Shown here in pieces: positions 1 to 63,641 of a DNA stretch of 64,000 nt; the first letter of the stretch is position 1, and the number at the start of each line of letters is the position of its first letter. Source of the stretch: Hypanus sabinus (taxonomy: Eukaryota); NCBI RefSeq assembly GCF_030144855.1, contig NC_082712.1, forward strand, positions 11,842,001 to 11,906,000. The letters are read 5' to 3'. Below the pieces are notes generated by a model. The model worked only from the letters and a program-made list of their open reading frames with translations, did not search any database and was not told the DNA's origin. Made by a program: the position numbers and the translations under genes.

Positions 1-374
1 TTACCTGCAGTCGGATCTCACTCTGGATCACATGGTTAAATGGGGGTTTGACGTAGGATAAGTAATCATGCTTCCCTTTCCCGAATTCAGCCAGACGCAG
101 GTGGCTGTGACTGTCTCCCTCACTCAGCTGCTTTATCCTGATCAAGATGTTTCCTCCCTCTGGGTCCCTGACGAGCTTGTACTGAGTCAGTCGTTTTCTG
201 CTGCCCACGATCCATTTCCTCAGTGCCTGAAGGTGACGATGTATTGGTAGGGATCCTTCCTCATCCACGTCACCTTGTGTGCGGTGAGGCTCTGCCGAGG
301 CCGTGTGTACACACAGGGTAATGTGGCCGAAGCTCCCTCGGTTCCAGTCATCACAGAGACACTCTCATTGGGAG
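1..374 (-). pseudogene. Pseudogenized V-set Ig exon (Siglec-15/PILR-like paralog of 50622-51017); runs off the window start
   Basis: Aligns along its length to the intact exon at 50622-51017 (GASATLPCV..VTWMRKDPY..IVTFRH). Lesions: acceptor cctcAG changed to cctcAA (375-376), in-frame TGA after FRH, 1-nt deletion after ENG, and F-strand YLC changed to HLR. Confidence 0.9.
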
Positions 375-28934: not shown

Positions 28935-29678
28935 TGTTACGAATTCCCGTAACTGGATCACTGACCAGCAAAGATAGAGAGGTCCGTTGAAATCTATTTT
29001 TAAAAGTATTTATTGATAAAGGGCACAAAAATAAGATTAATGCAAACATACAGATAATATACATCGTCAATACTAAATCTAAGCGCGGGTATAATAATAA
29101 CCAATAAGTAATAACTCTATTGTTGTCTAGGGGTTAATATATTGTCCGGTGGAAAGGTTACAGTCACTATCAGTTCGTTCAAGCTGCAGCGTTGTTGGGT
29201 TTAAAAGTGATGCGGTATAAACTTGCTCCAGGCCTTTTATCCGTTTAGTCAGGGGAGCGGGCTTCCCCGTTGTTAGCTGAAAGCTGTTTTCCGTGGTTCC
29301 AGCCACGGAATCGAACGCACGTGGCTTCCTTCAGATGACTTCCTGCTGTTACGTGGTCGCTTAACGTTTCTTCTGGTGCGTCTGAAGGGGTTGTTCCCCA
29401 GACCCTCTTTTATACTTCCTCACGGGGTCTCCGATGTCAATCAGGTTGGGGGTGTGCACTCCCTCCCTCAACCAGCCCACTATGCCTGAGGGCGTTCACG
29501 TCGTATAGTAGCTCAATCCACAAATTGGTCACCAAGAGACAATGACCATGTCCCGTAGCTTTACATCGCCGGGGAAACGAGCCAGCCTGCACGTCTCTTT
29601 TCCCCTTTCCTGGGTCCCTTTACCCAACCCAACAGTGATCTTGCGATTCTCACAAAGGAGGGGGCTACGGACGTAACA
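28935..29678 (-). repeat. 3' LTR of the Gmr1-like element (744 bp)
   Basis: Near-identical to 34598-35359 apart from scattered substitutions and two 9-bp indels. Confidence 0.95.
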
Positions 29679-29805
29679 CCCCCTTTCTTCAGTGCATTTT
29701 TTACCATCGGAAAAAAACGAATTAATACAGAGTCTTACAGTGTGTTAGAATCTAACACAACACCAAAGTTTTTTTTCTACAGAGTAATGCAGTTATACAC
29801 TCAAT

Positions 29806-32800
29806 TCAGCATCTAGATAAACAATCCGCGAGCACATTATTACTTCCTTTAATATGCTGTATCTTAATATCGAACTCTTGCAGCATCAGACTCCAACTCA
29901 ATAACCTCCTGTTTTTATTTTTCATATTGGCCAGGAATACCAATGGGTTGTGATCGGTATAGACAACTACGGGTTTTTGCGCTGGACAAATGTACACTTC
30001 AAAATATTGTATCGCCAAAACAAGGGCCAACTATTCTTTTTCCACGGTAGAGTAATTCTTCTGGTGTATATTGAGCTTCCGAGAGAAATATGCTACCGGG
30101 TGCTCCACTCCATCCCCTGCTTGCTGTAAGAGGACTGCTCCGGCAGCCTCATCACTCGCGTCCGTCGCCAGGGAGAAGGGTGCTAACAAATCGGGTGCTT
30201 TTAAAAAAAGGGTTAATGGCACAATATGGCTTTTAACTTTTCAAAAGCATTCTCATAAGAACGGCCCCACTCAAATTTGTCCTCCTTCCGTAGGAGTTTT
30301 GTAAGTGGGAGAGCAATATCCGCGAAAGTTTTATAGAATTTCCGATAGTATCCACCAAGCCCAAAAACCTCCTCAGGGCCCTTTTATTGGAGGGTACAGG
30401 GACCTCAGAAATAGCCTGTACCTTCGCCCGCACAGGAGCCAACTGCCCCTCTCCCACCACATACCCCAAGTATGTGATCATGGCATGACCAAATTCACTC
30501 TTTGCGAGGTTTACCGTAAGTTGGGCTGCCGACATTCTTTTAAACAGATTTTCTACCGCCTCCAGGTGCCCCCCCCCCCCAGGTGTCACTCCAAACTACC
30601 ACATCGTCAAGATAAGCCTTGGTGTGGCTTAGCCCCTTTATCACAGTGTCTATCATCCGCTGAAATGTCCCTGGTGCATTTTTCATCCCAAACGGCATAA
30701 TGTTGTACTCGTACAACCCGGATGGGGTGACAAAGGCTGAAATCTCTCGAGTCCTGTCCGTTAAAGGAACGCACGAGTACCCCTTTAACAAGTCAATTTT
30801 AGTGATGTACCTCGCCTTCCCCAGTTTATCAATGCAATCATCCACCCTGGGGATAGGGTAAGCGTCTGTCTGGGTGACAGCTTTTACCTTTCGGTAATCG
30901 GTACAGAATCTTATGGTACCGTCCGGATTTGGGACAACCACGCAAGGAGAAGGCCACGCAGAAGAGGATTCGCGGATTATCCCAGCAGCTAGCATATGTT
31001 CAATCTCCTTTCCTACTAGCTGGCTCTTTTCGGAATTCATCCGATAAGGGGCCTGTTTTATAGGCGGTGTCGAGGTAACTATCACATCATGTTTCGTCCC
31101 ACTACACCTTCTTGGGACGTCTGGACATAAGTCTTTATGCCGGTTAATGAGCTGTGTTACCTGCTCCCGCTGTTCAAGCTTTAAGTGGCTAACTTTATCC
31201 GCAAGGCTTTCTAATATAACCGAGTTCTCCAGTCTGGTGGGTACTATACGTACCTTTTCAAACCGCTCTGGTTCGTCCTTACCCCTCCCCTCTACCTCAT
31301 CGGTTTTCATAACCGCACCGACCACCGCGGGGGTGGTTTCATGGTACCCTTTCATCATGTTCACGTGAACTAACTGGGTCGGCTTTCGCCGATCGGGGGT
31401 ATCAATCACGTAATTCAGCGAGTCTATTTTCTTATACACTGTATATGGTCCTTGAAACCTCGCCTGAAGGGGGTGGGTAACTACCGGAAATAGGACCAAA
31501 ACCTTGTCGCCCACGTGAAACTCTTGCTCTCTCGTTCCTTGGTTATACCACTTTCTCATTTTTTTTTCCTGGGAGTCTTTAATGTTTTCTCTTGCTAAGG
31601 CGCATACTTTATGCAGCCTTTCCCGGAATTTCAGAACATAGTCGATCACACTGACTTGAACGGTCGGGCTGGACCACTTTTCTCTCAGGAGGGTTAGAGG
31701 GCCCCTGGGCCGGTGACCGAAAACAAGCTCAAACGGACTGAACCCCAGAGAACCCTGAACTGTATCCCTTACGGCAAATAACAGAAGGGGTAAAGCATCA
31801 TCCCAGTCCCGAACGTTTTCCTGACAAAAAGTTTTAATCATGGTCTTTAGTGTAGCGTGGAATCTTTCCAACGCTCCTTGGGATTCCGGATGGTATGCAG
31901 AGGCTAAAATTTGTTTGACCCCCAGCTGGGTCATCATCTGCCGAAATGCTCTGGACGTGAATGTACTCCCCTGATCCGACTGTATCTCCTTAGGCAGCCC
32001 CACAGTGGTAAAGAATTTAATGAGAGCCTTCACCACCACGGAAGTCCTAATATTACCCAGAGGCACAGCCTCTGGAAATCGCGTAGCGGCACACATCAGG
32101 GTTATGATATACTGCCGCCCACTCGCAGTTTTAGGTAAAGGACCCACAAAATCCACAATGACTCGGGAGAAAGGCTCCTCACACGCGGGGATGGGTCGGA
32201 GGGGTGCCTTAGGGATAACTTGGTTCGGCTTACCCACCACCTGACATGTATGACACCTTTTACAATACTTAGTAATATATTTTCTCAGATTTGGCCAATA
32301 GAACTCTCTGATAACCCGATCCACTGTCTTCGTTATTCCCAAAAGCCCACCCAAGGGTCCCTTATGAGCTAAGTTCAAAATTTCGTCCCGATACACTTTC
32401 GGGACTACTACCTGATGTACCACCGCCCAGTCCTCATCGACCGGCACCGCTGGGGGCCTCCATTTTCTCATCAACACACCCTCTTTCAGGTAGTAACCCT
32501 TGGGCTCTGTCTCAATCTCAGAAAGAACTGACTCTCTCAATGCTACCAGCTCCTCGTCACCTTCCTGTTCCCGTACAAACTCTCTTCTTGCCAAGGGTAG
32601 GTCTACCTCCCCCCGTTTTTTCTCTCTCTTTCCTCCCTACTCTCCGGTTTGCCTTCCTCTGACCCTCGTTGGTACAGAGTCGGCAAAAACGTCTCGGCCA
32701 AATCGACACTGGCCGGACTTAAACTGCTCTCTGTCTCGGCTGCCTTTTTCGCCATGCTGCGAGTGACCGCGCATGCGGGATAGATCTTGGAATCTGGGGG

Positions 32801-33109
32801 CGGGGCCTCAACCCTCACAGGCTTGTTTGTCAGCTTCAAGGCTGCACCCACCTTTCCACCCGCCAAGTCGTTACCAAGAAGGACGTCCACGCCTTCCCCC
32901 GGCAACTCCGGCAGTACCCCCAATTCCACTGGCCCAGACACCAGCTCACAATTCAGAATGACCCTATGCAATGGCACCACGTCGCTCCATTTTCCTATGC
33001 CTCTCAGGGCTACCTCTCCCGCCTGAGGACCAAAATCTAGCACCTTACTGCTAATCAATGACAGCTCAGCCCCCGTGTCTCTCCAGATCCGTACTGGAAC
33101 TGGGGTGCC
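29806..33109 (-). pseudogene. Gmr1-like pol: protease, integrase, RT, RNase H (frameshifted)
   Basis: RDTGA protease site just after the TGA at 33110; H..H..C..C zinc finger, VIVDFVG/SDQG/ERFH DDE core and GPY motif; then FCTDYR..YPIP..MPFG..YLDD RT; then LATDAS..VAYFS..TDHNPL RNase H. Frameshifts near 32600, in the C-run at ~30570, and near 30350 and 30030. Confidence 0.92.
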
Positions 33110-34077
33110 TCACTCTTTCACAGACACTGTTCCTTTTGAACTAAACGTCTCACGCCCCTCCTGTACCCCCTCTACCGGGGGCCCTCTCGTCGATTTGCTG
33201 ATCGACGCAATACAGCCTATAGGTATGGCTGCTTTCCCTTTTCTTGGCTCCTTCCTCGGAGCGGGGCATCTAGATGCAATGTGACCCACCTTTCCACAAT
33301 TAAAACAGGTCAAGCCAGGAAACCTCCTGGCTTCTGGCCTGTCCTCCTCAATTTTACCGCTAGCTCCCAGATGAGTTTCTCCCTTAGCCGGCGGGCTTTC
33401 CCTACCGTTCCCACGGGCTCTCGGGTAACTTTTAGTCGAGGAAAACTTTGTCTTGTGGGTTAGGGCATATTCATCTGTGAACCTAGCGAATTCTGAGATG
33501 GACTTATTCGGCTTCTCATTCAAATACGTCCGGATATCCTCCGAAACACAACCTTTAAATTCCTCAATCAGAATTAACTCCCTGAGACGCCCATAATCCT
33601 CTTCCACTCTCTCAGCGGTGCACCACCGGTCCAAGAGCACATCCTTCTCATAGGCAAACTCGGTATACGACTGATTCCACCCTTTCCTTAAATTTCTAAA
33701 CTTTTGTCTAAACGCCTCAGCTACTAGCTCATAACTCCGGAGAATGGCCGCCTTTACTTTGTCATTACTCTCCTCCTCCATGGCCAACGCCGTATCTGCC
33801 CGCTGTGCCTTCCCCTTTAACACACTTTGTAACAACGCCACCCACTGACCTCTGGGCCACTTCTGATTCACGGCCACCTTTTCAAAAAGCAAGAAATAAC
33901 TATCCACATCCATCTCCTCGAACGGAGGTACTAGCCTCGACTCTTGACTAACATTGAACCGCTCCTCTCGGTCTGACCCCGGAACTCGTGGCTCCTGCTG
34001 TAACTTCTCCATCTCCAAGTCATGTTTCTTCTGTTTCTCTTTTTCACCTGCTTCCAGCTGTATTAACCTCATTTCGT

Positions 34078-34153
<76 letters not shown>

Positions 34154-34481
34154 CCCTTTCCCTCTCTTGCTCTCCCTCTTTCACTCTCTCAGCTGCCTCC
34201 AGCTGCTTTAACTTAATTGCATGTTCCAACTTTAATTTCTCCAACTCTAACTGAGCCGTCCCACTAGCGGGTGCCTCTTCAGGGATATTTTCCAATACCT
34301 CAGCTACAAACACATTCTTCCCAATATAACACTGAGTTACTGCCCTTCGCACCTCCCGCTTTTTCATGGACAACCTCATCCCTACGAGGTTTAACTCCTT
34401 CGCCAATTTTATCAAGTCCGATTTGGAGGCCACCTCCAGCGCCTCCAGAGTCGGGTTTTCTATAAGTTCACCCACGTCCAT
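33110..34481 (-). pseudogene. Gmr1-like gag (capsid/SCAN-related region plus CCHC knuckle), split by a microsatellite frameshift
   Basis: PPFEE.DVDSYF..FEKVA..W..LL...L.GKA capsid motif and CFNCGKVGHIASRC knuckle; the N-terminal ORF 34044-34481 is out of frame by 1 nt. Confidence 0.9.
34081..34151. repeat. (CT)35 microsatellite inside gag, encoding poly-(Glu-Arg)
   Basis: 71 nt of perfect CT repeat read directly. Confidence 0.97.
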
Positions 34482-34597
34482 CTTTGCTGGTTTCCCGTCT
34501 GGCTACCCGCGTAACCAGATCCAAGTTTTGGACTTACAATCCCGATTCACTGGCCTCCCAATTTGGTGTCAAATCTCGAGACGAGAACCCCAACTTT

Positions 34598-35359
34598 TGT
34601 TACGAATTCCCGTAACTGGTTCACTTATCAGCAAAGATAGAGAGGTCCGTTGAAGTCTGCTGGTACTATTTTTAAAAGTACTTATTGATAAAGGGCACAA
34701 AAATAAGATTAATGCAAACATACAGATAATATACATCGTCAATACTAAATCTAAGCGCGGGTATAATAATAGCCAATAAGTAATAGCTCTATTGTTGTCT
34801 AGGGGTTAATGTATTGTCCGATGGAAAGGTAACAGTCACTATCAGTTCGTTCAAGCTGCAGCGTTATTGGGTTTAAAAGTGATGCGGTTTAAACTTGCCC
34901 CAGGTCTTTTAAGATGCCAATCCGTTGAGTCAGGGGAGCGGGCTTCCCCGTTGTTAGCTGAAAGCTGTTTTCCGTGGTTCCAGCCACGGAATCGAACGCA
35001 CGTGGCTTCCTTCAGATGACTTCCTGCTGTTACGTGGTCGCTTAACGTTTCTTCTGGTGCGTCTGAAGGGGTTGTTCCCCAGACCCTCTTTTATACTTCC
35101 TCACGGGGTCTCCGATGTCAATCAGGTTGGGGGTGTGCACTCCCTCCCTCAACCAGCCCACTATGCCTGAGGGCGTTCACATCGTATAGTAGCTCAATCC
35201 ACAAATTGGTCACCAAGAGACAATGACCATGTCCCGTAGCTTTACATCGCCGGGGAAACGAGCCAGCCTGCACGTCTCTTTTCCCCTTTCCTGGGTCCCT
35301 TTACCCAACCCAACAGTGATCTTGTGATTCTCACAAAGGAGGGGGCTACAGGCGTAACA
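34598..35359 (-). repeat. 5' LTR of the Gmr1-like element (762 bp)
   Basis: TGTTACG start at 34598, CGTAACA end at 35359, followed by the GGTC TSD. Confidence 0.95.
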
Positions 35360-36220: not shown

Positions 36221-36898
36221 CAAGTGTTATGGACAGGGTAAATGCAAGGAGGCCTTTCCCCCGGAGGACGAGCGCGATCAGAACTAGACGTCAGGATACC
36301 GGGTGAAGGGTGAAATGTTCAGAGTGAATTTGTGGGAATGTTTTTTACTCAGTATGTGGTGAGAACGTGGATGGACTGCCAGCGTAAGTAGCGGATGCGG
36401 GGTCAATTTCACCCCCTTATGCGGATGTGAGGGGTGTGAAGGGCTGTGGTACCACTGAATTTCCATGGGACTAGGCAGCACAATTGTTCAGCATAGACTA
36501 GATGGACCGATTGGCCCGCTTATGTGCTGTACTGTTCAACTGTTGTCAGGGCAAGAGGCTTATTTCACAATAGGTCCATTGAGATGTCCCATCGAAGCTG
36601 ACCTTGAGCCTGGTGGTCGGTGATTTCAGGCTCTGGCATCTGGAGAGGACAGATGAGAGGACCTCCGGGGTATTCGGGCTGTTTGGTTCTGCTGGCCCTT
36701 TACCGAGCCGAAGTCCGCAGAGGGGAAGCTGGTTCCTGAGATGTGCTGAGCTGTGTCTACGGATTCCTATGGTTTCGTGCAGAGTAATTGCCACAGCAAG
36801 GCATTATATATCCAATGCTTTCTATTGTGCATCGATAAAACTTGTAATCTACATCGCGAGCGCGCAAACATTCTTTGTTTGTGCGCTGCATTTGGGTC

Positions 36899-38919
36899 TG
36901 TGGTAAGCTATGTATACCTGTCTGGACACGCCCCTCTGCTGACTGCTCCTGTGGCTTCTCCCACAGACCCCTGTATAGAGGCGATTGGGGCACTGCTCCT
37001 TCCTCAGACTCCGAGATGTCGTGCTCCCTTTTACTGCTAATAAAAGCCTATCGTTCACTTCCAGTCTCCGAGAGTTATTGATGGTGCATCAATTTTATTA
37101 GCAGCAATTTTAAAACATGGAGAGCATTTTATGACCAGACAGATTGGGATCTCGACCCTCATCCCAGGAAGGTGGCGACACTTTTGAACTCTGGCTATCA
37201 AGCTTCCAATCGTACCTGGAGGAGATTCACGTGACCGATCCTGCCACGATGAGGGTCTACTCCATGATCAGAGACAAAACGGACTACCGGGGTGCGGTGG
37301 ATGCCCTCAAAAGGCAATACCGGCAGCCGGTGAACACCGTCTATGCAAGACATTGCTCAGCGATGCGGCGGTAGCAGGCCCGTGAGTCGAGCGCTGAGTT
37401 TGTCCAGGCCCTACAGACACTCTTGCGGGCCTGCGACTGCAGGGGATTGATGGTGGAACAGCATGCGGAGCTGCTGGTAAGAGACGCCTTCGTTACAGGG
37501 ATCAGGTCAGTGCACATGTGCCAGCGCGCAGCTCGACCGGCTATACGCCCTCCATGCAGATCTTTGCCACCCGAAGGTAACCCAACATTAGCATTTCGTG
37601 TAGTCCGGGAACCTCCCTTACTCCCTTGAGGAAATCAAGATGATGACCAGGGACGGCCAAGTCTGCGCTGAGTGCAAACCGCACTTCTACCATCCTGAAA
37701 AGGCACAATTTATCAAGGCCACCCGCCCCTTTGAGCGACTGAGTGTTGACTTTAAGGGCCCCCTTCCCTCCACCGACTGCAATGTCTACTTTCTTAATAT
37801 TATCGACGAGTACTCGGGGTTCCCCTTTGCCATCCCCTGCCCTGATACCTCTGCCACGTCCGTCATAAAAGCCCTGCACCGGTTCTTCACTCTGTTCGGA
37901 TATCCCTGTTATATCCACAGTGATAGAGGGTCCTCGTTTATAAGTGACGAGCTGCACCATTACCTGCTGGCTAGGGGTATTGCTACTGGTAGGACCACAA
38001 GCTATAATCCCCTGGGGAATGGACAGGTGGAGAGGGAAAATGCCACGGTGTGGAAGGCCACACTCTTAGCCCTTAGGTCAAAGGGATTGCCGGTCTCTCA
38101 ATGGCAGGAGGTCCTCCCCGAGGCGCTCCACTCCATCCGCTCCCTGTTATGCACGTCCACCAATGCCACCCCTCATGAGCGACTCTTTTCTTTTCCCAGG
38201 AAGTCTGCCACTGGGACCACCCTACCGGCTTGGCCGATGTCCCCAGGGCCAGTGCTGCTCTGGAAACATGTGAGGAGCAATAAGTACTCCCCGATGGTCG
38301 AGAGGGTTCACCTACTTCATGCGAACCCCCAGTATGCCTACATGGTCTTACCTGATGGGCGGGAGGACATGGTCTCTGTCCGCGACCTGGCGCCCACAGG
38401 AGCACCAGACCCCTACCCCGAACACTCCACGGTGACTATGAACCCCGTACCCACGAGAGACCGTGCACCCCAAGCCCTACACAGACTCCTCACGACACTC
38501 CCATACCGGCTGCAACGCACACGCATGAGGGATTACTGATGCCTAACGGGCTGGCACCTCAAGTCAGGCCAGAGCCAGCAAAACCACCATCTCCGGTGCA
38601 ATCACCACCGGTGCTCCGTAGATCGCAGCGACAGACTCGACCGCCTGATAGACTTGACCTGTAAATATACTTGTAAGAAACTTCGCCCCGTGGGGACTCT
38701 CTTTTAAAACAAAGGTTGGGAGTGAATGTGATAAACTATGCATACCTATCTGGACACGCCCCTCTGCTGACTGCTCCTGTGGCTCCTCCCTCAGACCCCT
38801 GTATAAAGGCGATTGGGGCACTGCTCCTCCCTCAGTCTCCGAGATGTCGTGCTCCCTCTTGCTGCTAATAGAAGCCTATCGTTCACTTCCAGTCTCCGAG
38901 AGTTATTGATGGTGCATCA
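36899..38919 (+). mobile_element. Internally deleted LTR retrotransposon (193-bp LTRs; gag remnant plus integrase, no PR/RT/RH)
   Basis: LTRs 36899-37091 and 38727-38919 (TG..CA), 5-bp TSD GGGTC and purine-rich PPT at ~38706-38726. Confidence 0.9.
37640..38539 (+). CDS. Gypsy integrase ORF (DDE core)
   Basis: CAECKP, PFERLSVDFKGP, IIDEYS.FPFA, IHSDRGSSF and YNP.GNGQVEREN motifs. Confidence 0.85.
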   Translation: MMTRDGQVCAECKPHFYHPEKAQFIKATRPFERLSVDFKGPLPSTDCNVYFLNIIDEYSGFPFAIPCPDTSATSVIKALHRFFTLFGYPCYIHSDRGSSFISDELHHYLLARGIATGRTTSYNPLGNGQVERENATVWKATLLALRSKGLPVSQWQEVLPEALHSIRSLLCTSTNATPHERLFSFPRKSATGTTLPAWPMSPGPVLLWKHVRSNKYSPMVERVHLLHANPQYAYMVLPDGREDMVSVRDLAPTGAPDPYPEHSTVTMNPVPTRDRAPQALHRLLTTLPYRLQRTRMRDY

Positions 38920-39725
38920 GGGTCCTTCCCCAGCAGCCTTGCTCCTACATTGTGACAGAGCGCTCTCGCCGAACATGGACCCAGCAGACACAAACACTGT
39001 TTTTTCAAACTCTCGTCAGCCAGAATCCCGCACAGAGTGCAATTCAAGACAGTGACTCAAAGTCCCAGTTATCACTTTAGCCACGGGGTAAATACGTCAG
39101 TTATATAAGGGCAAGGTGTTGTTCTGTTTTGCCCGCCGACCAAAACCCTCTTCACCACCCGGGTCATTGATAATCCGGGCAAACCTGTTGGTCGCCTGGA
39201 GGCTCCCATTGGGGGGGGGGGGGGGGTGGATACTGTCAGGGTCCGGATTGGGTTCACTTTAAATTTACCTTGTTTGTGTTACGATCCGACCGTTGGATCC
39301 TTGTTTTCCTTTAATTCCTGGTTTTCCCGTGTCCCTTGGGCTTGGTGATTAAAGGCAATTTACTCGCGACCGAACCGGCAGTTTATAAGTTTCCGGCTTC
39401 AGCCGTTCAGCGAGTGAGTGTTAACGAAGCTGGTGTGAGTCAAAGTCATCCAGCCGGAGCAAGCCACGTCTCCTCCTGAAGGAAGTACCAGCAATCCCGA
39501 GCAGGTCCGGCAAGGTTAACCCGCCAGGGTGAGTCAAGAGCTCACCGCTGCTTGGGGCAAACGTGCCCAGTTTTAGTACCGTCTATCGCTGTGTTGTCTC
39601 CGTATCCATGTCCTGTGTTTCAAAGGGGTCCTGGCCCTGTGTCAAGAAGAGTCCCGACTCTGTCCAGTGCCTAAGGAGGATTCCATGCTCAATGCTTTCT
39701 ATCCTGTGTCTGAGTCTGTCCCGTG

Positions 39726-42115
39726 AATAAGAAACAGAGAAAATAGGTGCAGGAGTAGGCCATTCGGCCCTTCGAGCCTGCACCGCCATTCAGTATGATC
39801 ATGGCTGATCATCCAACTCAGAACCCTGTACCTGCTTTCTCTCAATACCCCTGGATCCCTTTAGCCACAAGGGCGTATCTAACTCCCTCTTAAATATAGC
39901 CAATGAACTGGCCTCAGCGGTTTCCTGTGGCAGAGAATTCTGCAGATTCACCACTCTCTGTATGAAGAAGTTTTTCCTCATCTTGGTCCTAAAATGCTTC
40001 CCCTTTATCCACAAGCTGTGACCCCTCGTTCTGGACTTCCCCAACATCAGGAACAATCTTCCTGCATCTAGCCTGTCCAATCCCTTTAGAATATTATATG
40101 TTTCAATAAGATCCCCTCTCAATCTTCTAAATTCCAGTGAGTATAAGCCTAGTCGATCCAGTCTTTCTTCATATGAAAGTCCTGCCATCCCAGGAATCAA
40201 TCTGGTGAACCTCCTCTGTACTCCCTCTATGGCAAGAATGTCTTTCCTCAGATTAGGGGACCAAAACTGCTCACAATACTCCAGGTGTGGTCTCACCAAG
40301 GCCTTGTACAACTACAGTAGAACCCCACTGCTCCTGTAGTAGAATCCTCTTGCTATGAATGCCAACATACCATTTGCCTTTTTCACCACCTGCTGTACCT
40401 GCATGCCCACCTTCAATGACTGGTGTACAATGACACCCAGGTCTCGTTGCACCTCCCCTTTTCCTAATCGGCCACCATTCAGATAATAATCTGTTTTCCT
40501 GTTCTTGCCACCAAAGTGGATAACTGCACATTTATCCACATTAAATTGCATCTGCCATGAATTTGCCCACTCACCTAACCTATCCAAGTCACCCTGCATC
40601 CTGCTCACAAGTAACACTGCCACCCAACTTCATGTCATCTGCAAACTTGGAGATGCTGCATTTAATTCCCTTGTCTAAATCATTAATATATATTGTAAAC
40701 AACTGGGGTCCCAGCACTGAGCCTTGTGGTACCCCACTAGTCACTGCCTGCCATTCTGAAAAGGTCCTGTTTATTCTCACAGTTTGCTTCCTGTCTGCCA
40801 ACCAATACTCTATCCACATCAATGCCATACCGCCAATACTGTGTGCTTTAAGTTTGCACACTAATCTCCTGTGTGGGACCTTGTCAAAAGCCTTTTGAAA
40901 ATCCAAATATACCACATCCACTGGTTCTCCCCATCCACTCTACTAGTTACATCCTCAAAAGGTTCTATAAGATTTACCTTTCACAAATCTGTGCTGACTT
41001 TGTCTGATGATTTCACTGCTTTCCAAATGTGCTGTTATCACATCTTTCATAACCAACTCTAGCATTTTCCCCCCACACCGATGTCAGGCTAACCGGTCTA
41101 TAATTCCCCAGTTTCTCTCTCCCTCCTTTTTTAAAAAGTGGGGTTACATTAGCCACCCTCCAATCCTCTGGAACTAATCCAGAATCTAAAGGGTTTTGAA
41201 AAATTATCAGTAATGCATCTGTTATTTCTTGGGCTACTTCCTTAAGTACTCTGGGATAAAGACCATCTGGCCCGAGAGACTTATCTGCCTTTAATCCCTT
41301 CAATTTACCTAACACCACTTCCCTACTAACATGTATTTCCCTCAGTTCCTCCATCTCACTAGACCCTCGGCCCCCTACTATTTCCGGAAGATTATTTATG
41401 TCCTCCTTATTGAAGACAGAACCAAAGTAGTTATTCAATTGGTCTGCCATGTCCTTGTTCCCCATGACTGTTTCTGACTGTAAGGGACCTATATTTGTCT
41501 TAACCAATCTTTTTCTTTTCGCATATCAATAAAAGATTTTATAGTCAGTTTTTATGTTCCCTGCCAGCTTTCACTCATAATCTTTTTTCCCTTTTCCTAA
41601 TTAAGCCCTTTGTCCTCCTCTGCTGGACTCTGAGTTTCTCCCAGTGCTCAGACGTGCTGCTTTTTCTCTTACCCAAGGAGTCTCGCACGACAAGATTGCT
41701 AACTAACCCTTCCTCATTGCTCAATGCCCAGTCTAGAATGGCCTAGTCTCTAGTTGGTTCCTCAACATGTTGGTTCAGAAAACCATCCCGCATCCCTTGT
41801 TCACCCTGGAGCTATGTCTCTGTGATCCCAACTATATCATATTCATGAATAACTATCTGCACATTCAATTCATCCACTTTGTTACGAATGCTCCTCGCAT
41901 TGACACACAAAGCCTTCAGGCTTGTTTTTACCACATTCTTAGCCCTTATACAATTATGTTGAAAAGTGGCCCTTTTTAATTTTTGCCCTGGATTTGCCTG
42001 TCTGCCACGTTTACTTTTCACCTTACTACTTTTTGCTTCAACCCTCACTTTACTCCTCTCTGTCTCTCTGCACTTGTTCCCATCCCCCTGCCACATTAGT
42101 TTAAATCCTCCTGAA
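39726..42115 (-). mobile_element. CR1 LINE (ORF2 start, internal deletion, RT, 3' end) inserted in an LTR
   Basis: [57 protein letters not shown] and LEYCEQFWSP motifs. Confidence 0.9.
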
Positions 42116-51017: not shown

Positions 51018-51324
51018 CTGAGGGAAGGACAGGTGCCTGAATATATCAGTTAACCCCCACCAAACATGTTTAACCACTGACAAAATTTCCAGCCAACAAA
51101 GCAATAAATACTCCCCTCCGTGACCACCCAAAGGAAAAGACCCCCACATGTGTCTCACTCATTGCAAACTGTTCAAACTAGGGAAACTCTTTCGAATATA
51201 AAACAGCCCCATCGGACTGGAGGCAGAGAAGCCTAAATCTCACACCACCACGTTCAGGAACAGCTAATTCCCTTCAGACATTCAGTTGTTGAACCAATTG
51301 ACACCATCACTAATCAGTGGAGTG

Positions 51325-52130
51325 TAACAAGACCAATCAGTACAGTCTAACAACACCAATCAGTACAGTCTAACAACACCAATCAGTACAGTGAAACACT
51401 GGCCATTACAGTGAAACAGCACAGATCAATACGCTGTAACAACACCAATCAGTACAGTGTAACAACACTGATCAGTACAGTATAACACCAATCAGTACAG
51501 TGTAACAACACTAGCCATTACAGTGTAACACCACCAGTAGGTACAGTCACTGTACGACGTCACTTCAGTGTAACAACACTAATCAGTACAGTGTGATAAC
51601 ACTAATCAGTACAGTGTAACAACTCTAGTCAGTACAGTGCAACAATACTAATCACTATAGTGTGAATACACTAATCAGTGCAGTGTAACAACACTAGTCA
51701 CTACTGTGCAATAATGCTAATGACTGAAGTATAACAACATTAACCAGTACTGTGTAAGAACATCAGTCACTACATTGTAACAACACTAGTCACTGTAGTG
51801 TGACCACTCTATTCACTAAAGTGTAATAACACTACTCACTGCAGAGTAACATCTCTAGTCACAACAGCATAACACTAGGCATAACAGTGTCATAGCACTA
51901 GTCACTACAGAATTATAACACTACTCAGTACAGTGTAAAAACACTAGTCACTGCAGTATAACAACACTAATTAGTACAGTGTGACAACACAATCACCACA
52001 ATGAAACAACACCAGTCAGTATTGTATAACAACACTAGTCACTATACTGTTACAGCCTAATCAATACAGAGTAATAATACTGATCAATACAGTATAACAA
52101 CACCAGTCAGTCCAGTGTAATGGCATTAGT
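51325..52130. repeat. Minisatellite, ~22-23-bp unit (consensus about AACAACACTAATCAGTACAGTGT), roughly 35 copies
   Basis: Contiguous degenerate tandem units with no unique spacers. Confidence 0.92.
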
Positions 52131-53692
52131 CATTAACTTATTAACTTAGCTGTGGGAATATTTTGCATTATGAGCTGTGTGTGATGTGATACCGTAGATG
52201 TTTTCTGGGTGCATTGTGCTCCAGAGGAACGCTGTTACATTTTGTTGTGGAGATGTACAGTCAGATGACAATGAACATGATCTTCATCTGTACTTGAATC
52301 TCTTCTACACTGAATCCACTCCAGTGTGATACTTACCTTACTGAAAGTGTTCAACAACCTGAGCTGGTGTGTTTGACAGAGAATTCTACAGTGAATCCTC
52401 TCCAGTGTAATACTTAATGTACTGAAAATGTTCAACTTTCTTATGTTTTGTGAGTGCACCTTGATCCGGAAGAAGGTGGTTTCACTAGAACACTAGAATA
52501 CTACAACACAGTACAGGCCCTTCAGCCCTGGATGTTGTGCCGACCCATATATTCCTTTAAAAAAGTACTAAACCCACACTACCCCGTAACCTTCTATTTT
52601 TCTTTTATCAATGTGCATGTCCAAGAGGCTCTTAAATACCCCAAATGTTTTAGCCTCCTCCACCATCCCTGGCAAGTCATTCCAGGCACCCACTACCCTC
52701 TAATAAAAAAAAACTTACCCCAATGTCTCCCCTAAACTTCCCTCCATTAACTTTGTACATATGCCCTCTGGTGTTTGCTATTGGTGCCCTGGGAAACAGG
52801 TACTGACTATCCACTCTATCTATGCCTCTCATGATCTTTAGACCTCTATCAAGTCCCCTCTCATCCTTCTAAGCTCCAAAGAGAAAAGTCCCAGCTCTGC
52901 TAACATTGCCTCATAAGACTTGTGTTCCAATCCAGGCAACATCCTGGTAAATCTCCTCTGCACCCTCTCCATAGCTTCCACATCCTTCCTATAATGAGGT
53001 AACCAGAACTGAACACAATACTCTAAGTGTGGTCTCACCAGAGATTTGTAGAGTTGCAACATGACCTCTCTACTCTTGAACTCAGTCCTCCTATTAATGA
53101 AGCCTAGCATCCCATAGGCCTTCTTAACTACCCTATCAACCTGCGCAGCGACCTTGAGGGATGTATGGATTTGAACCCCAAGGTCCCTTTGTTCATCCGC
53201 ATTCTTAATTAACTGACCATTAATCCTGTACTCAGTCTTCTGGTTTGTCCTTCCAAAATGCATCAACTCACACTTATCCGGATCGAACTCTATCACCGAC
53301 CTCCAGGCAGAATACTTTCCTTCCACTACTACCCTCTGCTTTCTTCTTGTAAGCCAATTTTTTATCCAAACAGCCAAGGTTCCACTGATCCCATGCCTCA
53401 TGACTTTCTTGATGAGTCTCTCATGGGGGACCTTGTCAAATGCCTTGTTAAAATCCATGTAGACCACATCTACTGCCCTACCCTGATCAATTCCTTTTGT
53501 TACCTCTTCAAAAAACTCAATCAGGCTTGTGAGGCACAACCTTCCCTTCACAAAGCCATGTTCACTATCCTTGAGTAGACTGTACTTCTCCAAATACTCG
53601 TAGATCCTATCCTTAAGAATCCTTTCCAATAGTTTTCAGACCACTGACATAAGACTCACCAGTCTATAGTTCCCAGGATTCTCCCTATTACC

Positions 53693-57504: not shown

Positions 57505-60500
57505 CAATAGACAATAGACAATAGACAATAGGTGCAGAAGCAGATCATTCGGCCCCTCGAGTCTGCACCGCCATTCTGAGATCATGGCTGATCATTCACT
57601 ATCAATACCCAGTCCCTGCCTTGTCCCCATATCCCTTGATTCCCCTATCCATCAGATATCTATCTAGCTCCTTCTTGAAAGCATCCAGAGAATTGGCCTC
57701 CACCGTCTTCCGAGGCAGTGCATTCCACACCTCCACAACTCTCTGGGAGAAGAAGCTCTTCCTCAACTCTGTTTTAAATAACTGACCTCTTATTCTCAAT
57801 CCATGCCCTCTGGTACTGGTCTCTCCCAACATCTGGAACATATTTCCTGCCTCAATCCTATCAAATCCTTTAATTATCTTAAACGTTTCAATCCGATCCC
57901 CTCTCAATCTCCTCAATTCCAGCGTGTACAAGCCCAATCTCTCCAATCTTTCTGCGTAAGACAGCCCTGCCATCCCAGGAATCAACCTAGTGAATCTACG
58001 CTGCACTTCCTCAACTGCCAGAATGTCCTTCCTTAAACCTGGAGACCAAAACTGTACACAATATTCCAGGTGTGGTCTCACCAGGGCCCTGTACAAATGC
58101 AAAAGGACATCCTTGCTCTTGTATTCAATTCCCCTTGTAACAAAGGCCAACATTCCATTTGCCCTCTTCACTGCCTGTTGCACTTGCTCATTCACCTTCA
58201 TTGACTGGTGAACTAAGACTCCTAGGTCTCTTTGCATTTCTCCCTTACCTAACTCTACACCGTTCAGACAATACTCTGCCCTCTTGTTCCTGATTCCAAA
58301 GTGGATAACTTCACATTTATTCACATTGAATGACATCTGCCAAGTATCTGCCCACTCACCCAGCCTATCCAAGTCTCCCTGTATTCTCCTAACGTCCTCT
58401 TCGCATGTCACACTGCCACCCAGTTTAGTATCGTCAGCAAACTTGCTGATATAGTTTTCAATGCCCTCATCTAAATCATTGACATAAATCGTAAAGAGCT
58501 GTGGTCCCAATACAGAGCCCTGTGGTACCCCACTAGTCACCTCCAGTCAGTCCGAGAAACACCCATTCACTGATACCCTTTGCTTTCTATCTGCCAACCA
58601 GTTTTCTATCCATGTTGAAACCCTGCCCCCAATGCCATGAGCTCTGATTTTACTCACCAATCTCCTATGTGGCACCTTATCGAATGCCTTCTGAAATCTA
58701 GGTATACAACATCCACTGGCTTACCCTCATCTAACATCCTTGTTACAACCTCAAAAAACTCCAACAGATTAGTCAAGCATGATTTGCCCTTGGTAAATCC
58801 ATGCTGGCTCAGCCTAATCCTATTTCTGCCATCTAGATGTGCCACTGTTTCGTCCTTAATAATGGACTCAAGCATCTTCCCCATGACTGACGTTATGCTA
58901 ACAGGGCGATAGATCTCCATTTTCTCCTTCCCTCCCTTCTTGAAAAGTGGGATAACACTAGCCACTCTCCAACCTTCAGGAACTGATCCTGAATCTAAGG
59001 AACATTGGAAAATGATTACCAATGCATCCGCAATTTCCTGAGCCACCTCTTTTAGAACCCTTGGATGCAGACCAAACGGACCCGGGGATTTATTAGCCTT
59101 CATTCCTACCAGTCTACTCATCACAGATTCTTTCCGAATGTCAATCTGTCTCAATTCCTCTGATATCTTATGACCCTGGCCCATCCATACATCTGGGAGA
59201 TTGCTTGTGTCCTCCCTGGTGAAGACAGATCTAAAGTACGCATTAAATTCTGTTGCCATTTCCCTGTTTCCCATAACAATTTCTCCCAATTCATTCTTCA
59301 AGGAGCCAACATTGTTCTTAACTATCTTCTTTCTCTTCACATAGCTAAAAAAAGCTTTTGCTATCCCCTTTTATATTCCTGGCTAGACTGAGCTCATACC
59401 TGATTTTTTCTCTCTGTATTGCTTTTTTAGTTAAGATCTGCTGTTCCTTAAAACTTTCCCAATCATCTGTATTCCCACTCATCTTAGCCCTGTCATACTT
59501 CTTTTTCTTTAATGCAATACAATCTCTGACTTCCTTTGTCAACCACTGTGGCCCCTTCCCCCTCTTTGAATCCTTCCTTCTCATTGGAATGAACTGCTTT
59601 TGCATCTTTTGTATTATGCCCAAGAATATCTGCCACTGCTGATCCACTGTCTTTCCTGCCAGGGCATCCGCCCATTTAACTTTGGCCAGCTCTTCCCTCA
59701 TGGCTCCGTAGTCTCCTTTATTTAATTGCAACACTGACACCTCTGATCTGCCCTTATCCCTCTCAAATTGTAGATGAAAACTTATCATGTTATGATCACT
59801 ACATCCTAATGGCTCCTTTACTTCAAGATCACTTATCAATTCCTGTTCATTACACATCACCAAGTCCAAAATAGCCTCGTTCCTGGTTGGCTCAAGCACA
59901 AGCTGTTCCAAAAATACATCCCTTAGACACTCCACAAACTCCCTATCCTGGGGTCCAGCACCTACCTGATTCTCCCAGTTCACCTGCATGTTGAAATCTC
60001 CCATAACGACTGCATTACCTTTAGCACATGCCAATGTTAACTCCCTAATCAACTTGTACCCAATATCCATGCTACTGTTTGGGGGCCTGTACACAACACC
60101 CATTAGGGTCTTTTTACCCTTACTGTTCCTCAGCTCAATCCACACAGACTCTACTTCCCCTGTTCCCAAGTCACCTCTTGCTAAGGATTGAATCTCATTC
60201 CTCACCAACAGGGCCACCCCACCCTCTCTTCCCATATTTCTGTTTCTACGTTAGCACGTATACCCTGGTACACTCAATTCCCAGGCCTGATCCCCTTGCA
60301 GCCATGTCTCCGTTATCCCAACAATATCGTAGTTCCCCATTTTCATCCGAGCTTCAAGCTCATCTGTCTTATTTCTGACACTACGCGCATTCAAGTATAG
60401 AATTCTTAGCCCATTCCTCCTCTCTTTGTTTAAAACACTGTCTACTGTACCTAACCCAGCTCCTTGAACTTCCATCGGGCTAATTGCACCCTGAATTTTG

Positions 60501-63424: not shown

Positions 63425-63641
63425 TGTGGTGAACTACATATACCTGTCTGGACACACCCCTCTGCTGACTGCTCCTCTGGCTCCTCCCACAGACCCCTGT
63501 ATAAAGGCGATTGGAGGCACTGCTCCTCCCTCAGTCTCCAGGATGTTGTGTGGTTGTCTCTTGCTGCTAATCGTGGTCTCTTGCAGCTAATAAAAGCCTA
63601 TCGTTCGCCTCCTGTCTCCGAGAGTTATTAATGGTGCATCG
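63425..63641 (+). mobile_element. Solo LTR of the 193-bp LTR family
   Basis: Matches 36899-37091; TGTGG..CATCG ends; 5-bp TSD CTCTG (63420-63424 and 63642-63646); internal ~21-bp tandem duplication. Confidence 0.9.

Follow-up and report, generated by a model that had tools for sequence, protein, structure and literature searches.

Complementarity between the primer-binding site and the LTR in a chromodomain-less Gypsy group from Hypanus sabinus and its relatives: probable self-priming by a capped 5' fragment

The window analyzed here, a stretch of 64,000 nucleotides from Hypanus sabinus (contig NC_082712.1, forward-strand positions 11,842,001 to 11,906,000), contains a Gypsy LTR element at positions 36899-38919 that is decayed, has an internal deletion, and is bounded by a 5-bp target-site duplication (TSD). 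Its parts, among them the PBS (primer-binding site), and a related solo LTR located farther downstream are as follows.

36894..36898, plus strand: left TSD, GGGTC, repeated at 38920-38924; other copies also have 5-bp TSDs
36899..37091, plus strand: 5' LTR of 193 nt, TG...CA, 94% identical to the 3' LTR
36974..36980, plus strand: TATA-like box, mutated in the window copy, present in 127 of 142 family LTRs
37004..37010, plus strand: initiator-like motif; transcription start predicted at ~37006; 97 of 127 LTRs have an A located 32-34 nt past the T of the TATA-like box
37031..37045, plus strand: arm, the predicted pairing end of the self-primer, including AATAAA at 37039-37044
37046..37091, plus strand: loop with an inner helix predicted from the fold (37046-37053 with 37079-37087) that begins directly past the arm
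37045/37046, plus strand: predicted cut, placed by prediction; aberrant breakpoints do not mark it
37093..37107, plus strand: PBS, TTTTATTAGCAGCAA, 1 nt past the LTR end, without TGG and with complementarity to the arm
37117..37525, plus strand: start of gag, with stops and frameshifts, homologous to P0002/P0004
37604..38539, plus strand: integrase remnant (rve, Pfam PF00665, E 8e-16) without a chromodomain
38706..38726, plus strand: decayed polypurine tract, its GTGAA end abutting the 3' LTR; other copies are built alike
38727..38919, plus strand: 3' LTR of 193 nt, with an arm copy at 38859-38873 in which AATAAA has become AATAGA
38920..38924, plus strand: right TSD, GGGTC, matching the left one
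63425..63641, plus strand: solo LTR of a related subfamily, with an arm at 63581-63595, a partial arm duplicate at 63561-63571, and the TSD CTCTG

The window copy is dead: its gag is broken and ~2.5 kb is gone, the protease, reverse transcriptase (RT), and RNase H having been deleted upstream of the integrase remnant. Longer copies of the family measure 4.2-4.6 kb and have 5-bp TSDs and the Gypsy domain order. The window element is found with identical flanks at five sites (G000:C25:11878899, 12163269, 12618168, and 13005323, and C2488:252443), which represent a recent segmental duplication. Neither Rfam nor ARAGORN gave a match in the element or in the 64-kb window.

Several other repeats are present in the window. 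A young Gmr1-like Gypsy element (28935-35219, minus strand), with the integrase ahead of the RT, with SCAN and CCHC domains, and with LTRs that are 96-99% identical, carries a TGG-type PBS 5-6 nt past the LTR end, presumably for tRNA-Asp, and is a tRNA-primed neighbor of the element described here. Inverted arms of 209 nt, 97% complementary and spaced by 1,111 nt (815-2343), probably belong to a non-autonomous DNA transposon. There are also a degenerate tandem array of a 23-bp unit (51283-52151) and fragments of a LINE-type reverse transcriptase element at 39799-41525 (minus strand) and 57577-58694, which we take, by their motifs, to be CR1-like.

As stated in a preliminary description of this DNA, the sequence directly past the 5' LTR lacks TGG: a single A separates the LTR end (37091) from the PBS. 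The reverse complement of the PBS matches the 5' and 3' LTRs, again as described, and the solo LTR at 14 of 15 positions: 37031-37045 in the 5' LTR, where the A at 37033 makes an A-C mismatch; 38859-38873 in the 3' LTR, where an A-to-G change gives a G-U pair and abolishes AATAAA; and 63581-63595 in the solo LTR. Beyond these three arms, the 64-kb window has no further site with one mismatch or fewer, and none of 20,000 shuffled LTRs scored 14/15. Three details need to be amended. The arms are indeed spaced by 47 nt, but AATAAA, which had been placed in the loop, lies inside the paired arm. The TATA-like box is present, but the window 5' LTR reads TGTATAGA at this point, and the reported form, TGTATAAA, is that of the 3' and solo LTRs. 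Finally, the solo LTR shows the complementarity claimed for it, but its arm is that of a different subfamily, in which the corresponding change is present in the PBS as well (L138, L186).

The family set was compiled by one DNA search and four gag searches of the H. sabinus genome, which yielded 150 loci, or 146 after removal of four duplicates of the window copy; the LTR end is readable in 143 of these, with at least one copy (L030/L170) entered twice in the junction counts. None of the 143 junctions has TGG within 6 nt of the LTR end. The arm could be anchored in 142 cases; at least 12 of the 15 positions are paired in 140 of these 142, and 15/15 pairing, originally proposed for a consensus, is the commonest state of the real copies (63/142). 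Eight variable positions define seven fully paired arm/PBS versions (30, 23, 6, 3, 3, 1, and 1 copies), and an additional version, with 22 copies, pairs at seven of the eight. In a sister family, whose gag is ~60% identical, four variable positions differ from those of the window family, on both strands of the pairing. The covariation of the two 15-mers that had been suggested as a check is thus observed, the arm and the PBS changing together. The same suggestion had named two outcomes that would speak against it, a TGG-type PBS in intact members and a lack of conserved complementarity; instead, copies with unbroken open reading frames carry the same non-tRNA PBS, and compensatory change is found both within the genome and among distant families. 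Because mismatched arm/PBS intermediates are found in either direction, the order of change alone does not demonstrate copying. A search of the same genome with a distant gag recovered the sister family only. This family is likely to be young and recently active, given its 1,990 exact junction matches and the copies with identical LTRs and unbroken frames (L171-L175).

The TG...CA LTRs, TSD, and polypurine tract expected of a Ty3/Gypsy element are all present, and family copies have the order gag-protease-RT-RNase H-integrase, with Ty3 as the best PDB match (E 1e-41). The absence of a visible chromodomain from this short-LTR family, remarked upon in the preliminary description, extends to nine polyproteins, none of which has such a domain at E ≤ 0.01; the integrase remnant in the window has none either. 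The RT phylogeny that had been recommended was obtained as a quick tree without eight short rows, and it sets the group apart from the sushi-like chromoviruses of the same genome: a long branch (SH-aLRT 93) divides the 42 rows of the group from the outgroups, which are six decayed sushi-like rows and one Gmr1-like row from H. sabinus, all on long branches, with no Tf1 or Ty3 row among them. The RT/RNase H region is 54-86% identical inside the group, compared to 23-37% identity to sushi-like elements of the same genome. Complementarity of the PBS to the element's own LTR in the absence of a tRNA site is a feature common to this group and the Tf1/sushi chromoviruses; membership in Tf1/sushi was rejected on the missing chromodomain and the separate branch of the quick tree. 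A Saci2-like identity was not adopted, as Saci2-like elements have 4-bp TSDs and assigned tRNA sites in the available part of the source (PMC12471100). One possible home for the group is the Cigr-1 clade. We assume that Cigr-1 from Ciona intestinalis has short LTRs, a single open reading frame of ~1,200 codons, and no chromodomain, and resembles the window group in size. The Cigr-1 clade is recorded in tunicates and molluscs in the accessible text of PMC6238403, where nothing is said about its primer.

Relatives of the element are more widespread. Homologs with a named host are known from a shark and from rays as well as from a cnidarian, a nematode, and a sea cucumber; viral contigs contained no relative. 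The nematode and cnidarian homologs (P0212, P0227) show 59-64% identity to the ray elements and are placed beside those elements in the quick tree. A metagenome scan retained 80 loci, including 37 with a gag start and enough upstream DNA, and in 32 of these 37 the PBS pairs with the LTR over 11-20 nt, the LTR end having been chosen partly by the pairing itself. Among the five misses, L260 pairs at 15 of 16 positions by reading (its LTR end is mutated), L264 is decayed, and L267 has a PBS that matches its own 3' LTR; the remaining two, L201 and L251, show no pairing, and no explanation was found. In an unbiased test, LTR ends were fixed solely by comparison of the 5' and 3' LTRs in 33 elements (18 from H. 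sabinus and 15 from metagenomes). The score reached at least 11 in 30 of the 33, including L225, which scored 11 in a shifted register; the three automatic misses were L180 (adjoined by a second element), L235 (a tandem), and L260, with its mutated LTR end. Among the controls, the 3' LTR and its flank gave no more than 6 and internal positions (30 each) no more than 8, whereas 198 cross-family pairings had a mean of 4.9 and a maximum of 9. Judged by these sequence comparisons, each PBS fits the LTR of its own family only.

The anatomy of the pairing was compared in 31 pairing representatives, which had been picked by a search that scores Watson-Crick pairs and leaves out the five non-pairing loci. 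In 28 of them CA+1 is the first PBS position, and in three it is CA+2; the arm is 11-20 nt long (mostly 15-16), and the loop spans 31-69 nt. The 3' end of the arm is AATAAA in 13 families, GTTAAA in 6, ATTAAA in 5, GATAAA in 2, TTTAAA in 1, and none of these in 4. Accordingly, 27 of the 31 arms end in a poly(A)-type hexamer, 18 of them canonical (AATAAA or ATTAAA), which leaves 13 arms without a canonical hexamer. Of the seven GTTAAA/TTTAAA families, three carry a canonical hexamer in their loop, where the duplex does not mask it; none of the 18 families with AATAAA or ATTAAA in the arm has a second canonical signal there. The arm of one relative, L218, pairs at 15 of 16 positions yet ends without a poly(A)-type hexamer. 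Duplex columns 1-13 of these Watson-Crick-selected representatives comprise 403 cells, with 394 Watson-Crick pairs, a single G-U pair, and 8 mismatches, compared to 49 G-U among 313 pairs in the predicted loop helices. Such a near-absence of G-U would be easier to reconcile with a PBS rewritten from the primer as template than with selection acting on an RNA helix. A helix starts within 4 nt past the arm in 20 of the 31 families, against 7.4 expected, and sequence past the PBS pairs with the loop over 3-9 bp, an uncontrolled count.

In the ray families, the spacing between the TATA-like box and the initiator-like A is constant (97 of 127 LTRs at 32-34 nt), and the distance from the box to the arm varies, being 55-60 nt in 59 LTRs and 75-80 nt in 58; hence, the arm is predicted to lie 25-45 nt inside the transcript. 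The invertebrate-type relatives have no clear TATA box. A further source of information is a class of aberrant junctions that consist of the LTR end, an A, the inverted arm, and the inverted leader. There are 250 matches to this pattern for the sister family (control, 0) and 6 and 24 for the window-type patterns, two being common to both (controls, 0). These ~280 aberrant junctions compare with 1,990 regular sister-family junctions, counted with patterns of slightly different lengths, so that aberrant products amount to roughly one tenth of sister-family junctions.

Of 173 aberrant junctions retrieved, 170 were inspected. The inverted copy extends to the LTR start in 138 of the 170, in 34 of those 138 after a whole LTR. 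Perfect 5-bp TSDs flank nine independent palindromes of this fold-back type, indicating that these formed before integration. The inverted copy ends early in the other 32; four of these are only as long as the PBS, and the 28 informative stops include 10 at TATA+26..33, 11 farther downstream, and 7 upstream. Among short stops in intact LTRs, 7 of 18 fall at TATA+26..33 (binomial P ~4e-5, for an interval chosen post hoc). The first batch of stops had 5 of 18 at +31..33; the second had 4 of 10 at +26, 1 of 10 at +30, and 0 of 10 at +31..33. In the window-type families, inverted copies end at TATA+31..33, which together with the initiator-like A is the basis for the start predicted at ~37006. Start-site stops correspond to 40-42 nt in window-type copies but to 61-68 nt in those of the sister family, and the stop therefore tracks the promoter rather than a fixed length. 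Several short-stop copies run on into internal sequence, with L477 returning into the PBS, and the LTR next to the inverted copy does not match it in L361, L444, and L477 at positions where subfamilies vary. As for the predicted cut, 1 of 113 breakpoints matches it exactly, 35 lie in the last 12 nt of the arm, and overall they are scattered across arm and loop with no sharp peak.

Four aberrant copies (L401, L409, L450, and L478) have one common junction, reflecting either a recurrent microhomology jump or the spread of a rearranged lineage, and L450 may be non-independent in the short-stop count. In five solo-LTR-like insertions (L326, L331, L343, L346, and L347), U5 carries an inverted piece of itself. 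Four contig runs on a sister-family LTR made no starts or ends visible and are informative neither way, and a search for retroposed poly(A) tails past the LTR signal, with 0 matches, was uninformative.

The position of the PBS, the lack of TGG, the compensatory change, and the aberrant DNA copies all support the tRNA-independent self-priming put forward in the preliminary description, and we are confident that these elements prime themselves in some form. The specific version that we favor, and regard as probable from the sequence evidence, is priming by a capped 5' fragment of 40-60 nt that is cut past the hexamer in a chromodomain-less Gypsy element. Transcription would start at the initiator, ~26-33 nt past the TATA box, and in the folded RNA 15-16 nt with an AAUAAA(A) end would pair with the PBS. 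A cut directly past the hexamer, probably made by the element's own RNase H by analogy with Tf1, would yield a capped 5' fragment, ~40 nt long in the window family and ~60 nt long in its sister, paired at its 3' end only, which RT would extend across U5. Plus-strand synthesis would then copy the primer back, so that the PBS would be rewritten from the arm and the Watson-Crick register kept. The cost would be a plus-strand DNA terminus complementary to the element's own LTR and, for that reason, frequent fold-back or overrun. A point against such a long primer is that the 138 fold-backs to the LTR start need just a PBS-length copy. Start-site stops, for their part, could alternatively arise if plus-strand DNA jumped to the 5' end of a second RNA that is uncut, in which case they map the start and not the primer.

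The primer might also come from a separate RNA: short capped transcripts of 5' or solo LTRs, ending at the poly(A) site and trimmed to the hexamer, would prime uncut genomic RNA in trans. This would account for the poly(A)-type hexamer at the paired end in 27 of 31 families as well as for copying to the start site, and the inverted copies of L361, L444, and L477 point to another molecule or the other LTR as their source. However, the differences in these three copies are equally explicable by priming in cis followed by transfer to a co-packaged RNA, or by decay; 13 of the 31 arms lack a canonical signal; and the helix located directly past the arm in 20 families, where 7.4 are expected, resembles a substrate for cleavage in cis. 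On balance, we consider trans priming unlikely.

Another possibility is that the pairing serves mainly to mask the 5' poly(A) signal and that some other RNA is the primer. HIV-1 keeps AAUAAA in a stem near the RNA 5' end, the poly(A) hairpin; that hairpin lies within R, at both RNA ends, whereas in the window group the partner strand is the PBS, present at the 5' end only. Consistent with masking, the stem is predicted at the 5' LTR only, with z values of -3.9 and -4.1 where the arm is unmutated (two cases) and -1.7 with the mutated arm of the window copy, against 0.8, with no stem predicted, for the window 3' LTR and its flank, and the 18 families with AATAAA or ATTAAA in the arm are free of a second signal in the loop. 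Masking leaves unexplained the CA+1 edge, the scarcity of G-U pairs, the 13 noncanonical arms (three with a signal in the loop), and the missing alternative primer site, and as the main role of the pairing it appears quite improbable. With 13 of 31 arms lacking a canonical hexamer, and three of these having one unmasked in the loop, poly(A) suppression, as far as the arm sequences tell, cannot explain the pairing in general; under self-priming by the 5' fragment, masking is a plausible side benefit where the arm has AATAAA or ATTAAA.

We assign a similarly low probability to a Tf1-type short primer, with the transcript starting at the 5' end of the arm and a primer of only 15-16 nt. Parsimony with Tf1 and the lack of a clear TATA box in the invertebrate-type relatives would favor it. 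In the ray families, however, the TATA-like box lies 55-80 nt ahead of the arm, with the initiator 32-34 nt past the box, and overrun copies accumulate at the initiator; two sushi-like elements from H. sabinus, by contrast, have the box just ~30 nt ahead of an 11-nt arm. Chance, or an internal tRNA fragment as the primer, is very hard to credit, as each PBS matches the LTR of its own family but not those of other families, a tRNA fragment would need to differ from one family to the next, and no shuffled LTR reached the observed score, even though half-tRNA priming occurs in some Copia lineages (PMC6317226, available part).

Self-priming by the 5' fragment can be compared with known systems. 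In Tf1, the RNA's first 11 bases pair with the PBS and cleavage by RNase H falls between bases 11 and 12 (PMC7175516, in the available text); a three-duplex structure of self-priming RNA is described in the accessible parts of PMC10085805, PMC4600332, and PMC5341516. Tf1 and Tf2 from Schizosaccharomyces pombe, Tj1, Tosmo1-3, and Tf1/sushi elements likewise have no tRNA site, a PBS complementary to the LTR, a helix in the loop, and the Gypsy domain order. Unlike these, the window group has no chromodomain and has an arm ending in a poly(A)-type hexamer; the Tf1 arm is 11 nt long and located at the RNA 5' end, whereas that of the window group is mostly 15-16 nt and lies inside the predicted transcript. 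Loops also differ, being ~200-300 nt in the sushi-like controls. Among 16 decayed chromodomain-bearing loci examined as a control, three (L305, L308, and L315) pair at 10/11 to 12/13 positions across such loops, and in two of the three the arm is ~30 nt past a TATA-like box, the layout expected if the primer is the RNA 5' end, as in Tf1 (PMC7175516, same portion). These decayed elements show the classical short self-primer layout, so that two self-priming designs are found in one genome.

In plants, self-priming has been predicted for Tcn1 chromoviruses and for TAR Copia elements (Houba, Osr-1) from complementarity between the LTR and the sequence that follows it, which implies that self-priming arose more than once; these are chromoviruses or members of another superfamily, and the available part of the source (PMC6317226) describes no link to a poly(A) signal. 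Unconventional priming was also proposed for Dictyostelium Skipper, which has no TGG-type PBS and a polypyrimidine stretch without a complementary LTR region (PMC5006619, in part), and for fungal GalEa, which has no TGG-type PBS and a hairpin site in the internal domain (PMC6934838, in part). Hairpin priming has been proposed as ancestral (PMC3601003, available text), and tRNA-primed groups are treated in the accessible parts of PMC13524379 and PMC12471100.

Self-priming is therefore already known; what is new is that the lineage is a separate one and that the primer differs in design. In the literature searched, with most subscription journals and Repbase outside it, this self-complementary PBS anatomy is not described for any animal Gypsy clade that lacks a chromodomain. 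Repbase presumably has entries named self-primed Gypsy, and an earlier mention of PBS-LTR complementarity is quite possible. The broadest reading, which we offer tentatively and would not yet bet on, is an animal-wide Gypsy clade with self-priming independent of Tf1/sushi, in which a long capped leader ends in a poly(A) hexamer, one switch both blocks processing at the 5' LTR and sets the primer end, the primer is maybe supplied in trans, and failed copies record primer length and transcription start.

These observations have several consequences. LTR annotation tools that require a tRNA site will miss or mis-score the group, and self-primed elements should, we infer, escape silencing by tRNA fragments directed at the PBS. 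Failed copies offer a DNA-only way of mapping start sites and primers in species without RNA data, and the approximately one-in-ten failed junctions are a measure of the cost. A long unpaired 5' leader on the primer raises the question of how plus-strand synthesis stops. Self-priming has been demonstrated for Tf1, is regarded as a hallmark of Tf1/sushi chromoviruses, and is predicted in two plant lineages; an abundant separate clade in cartilaginous fishes and invertebrates would mean another independent origin, which bears on whether hairpin priming preceded or replaced priming by tRNA.
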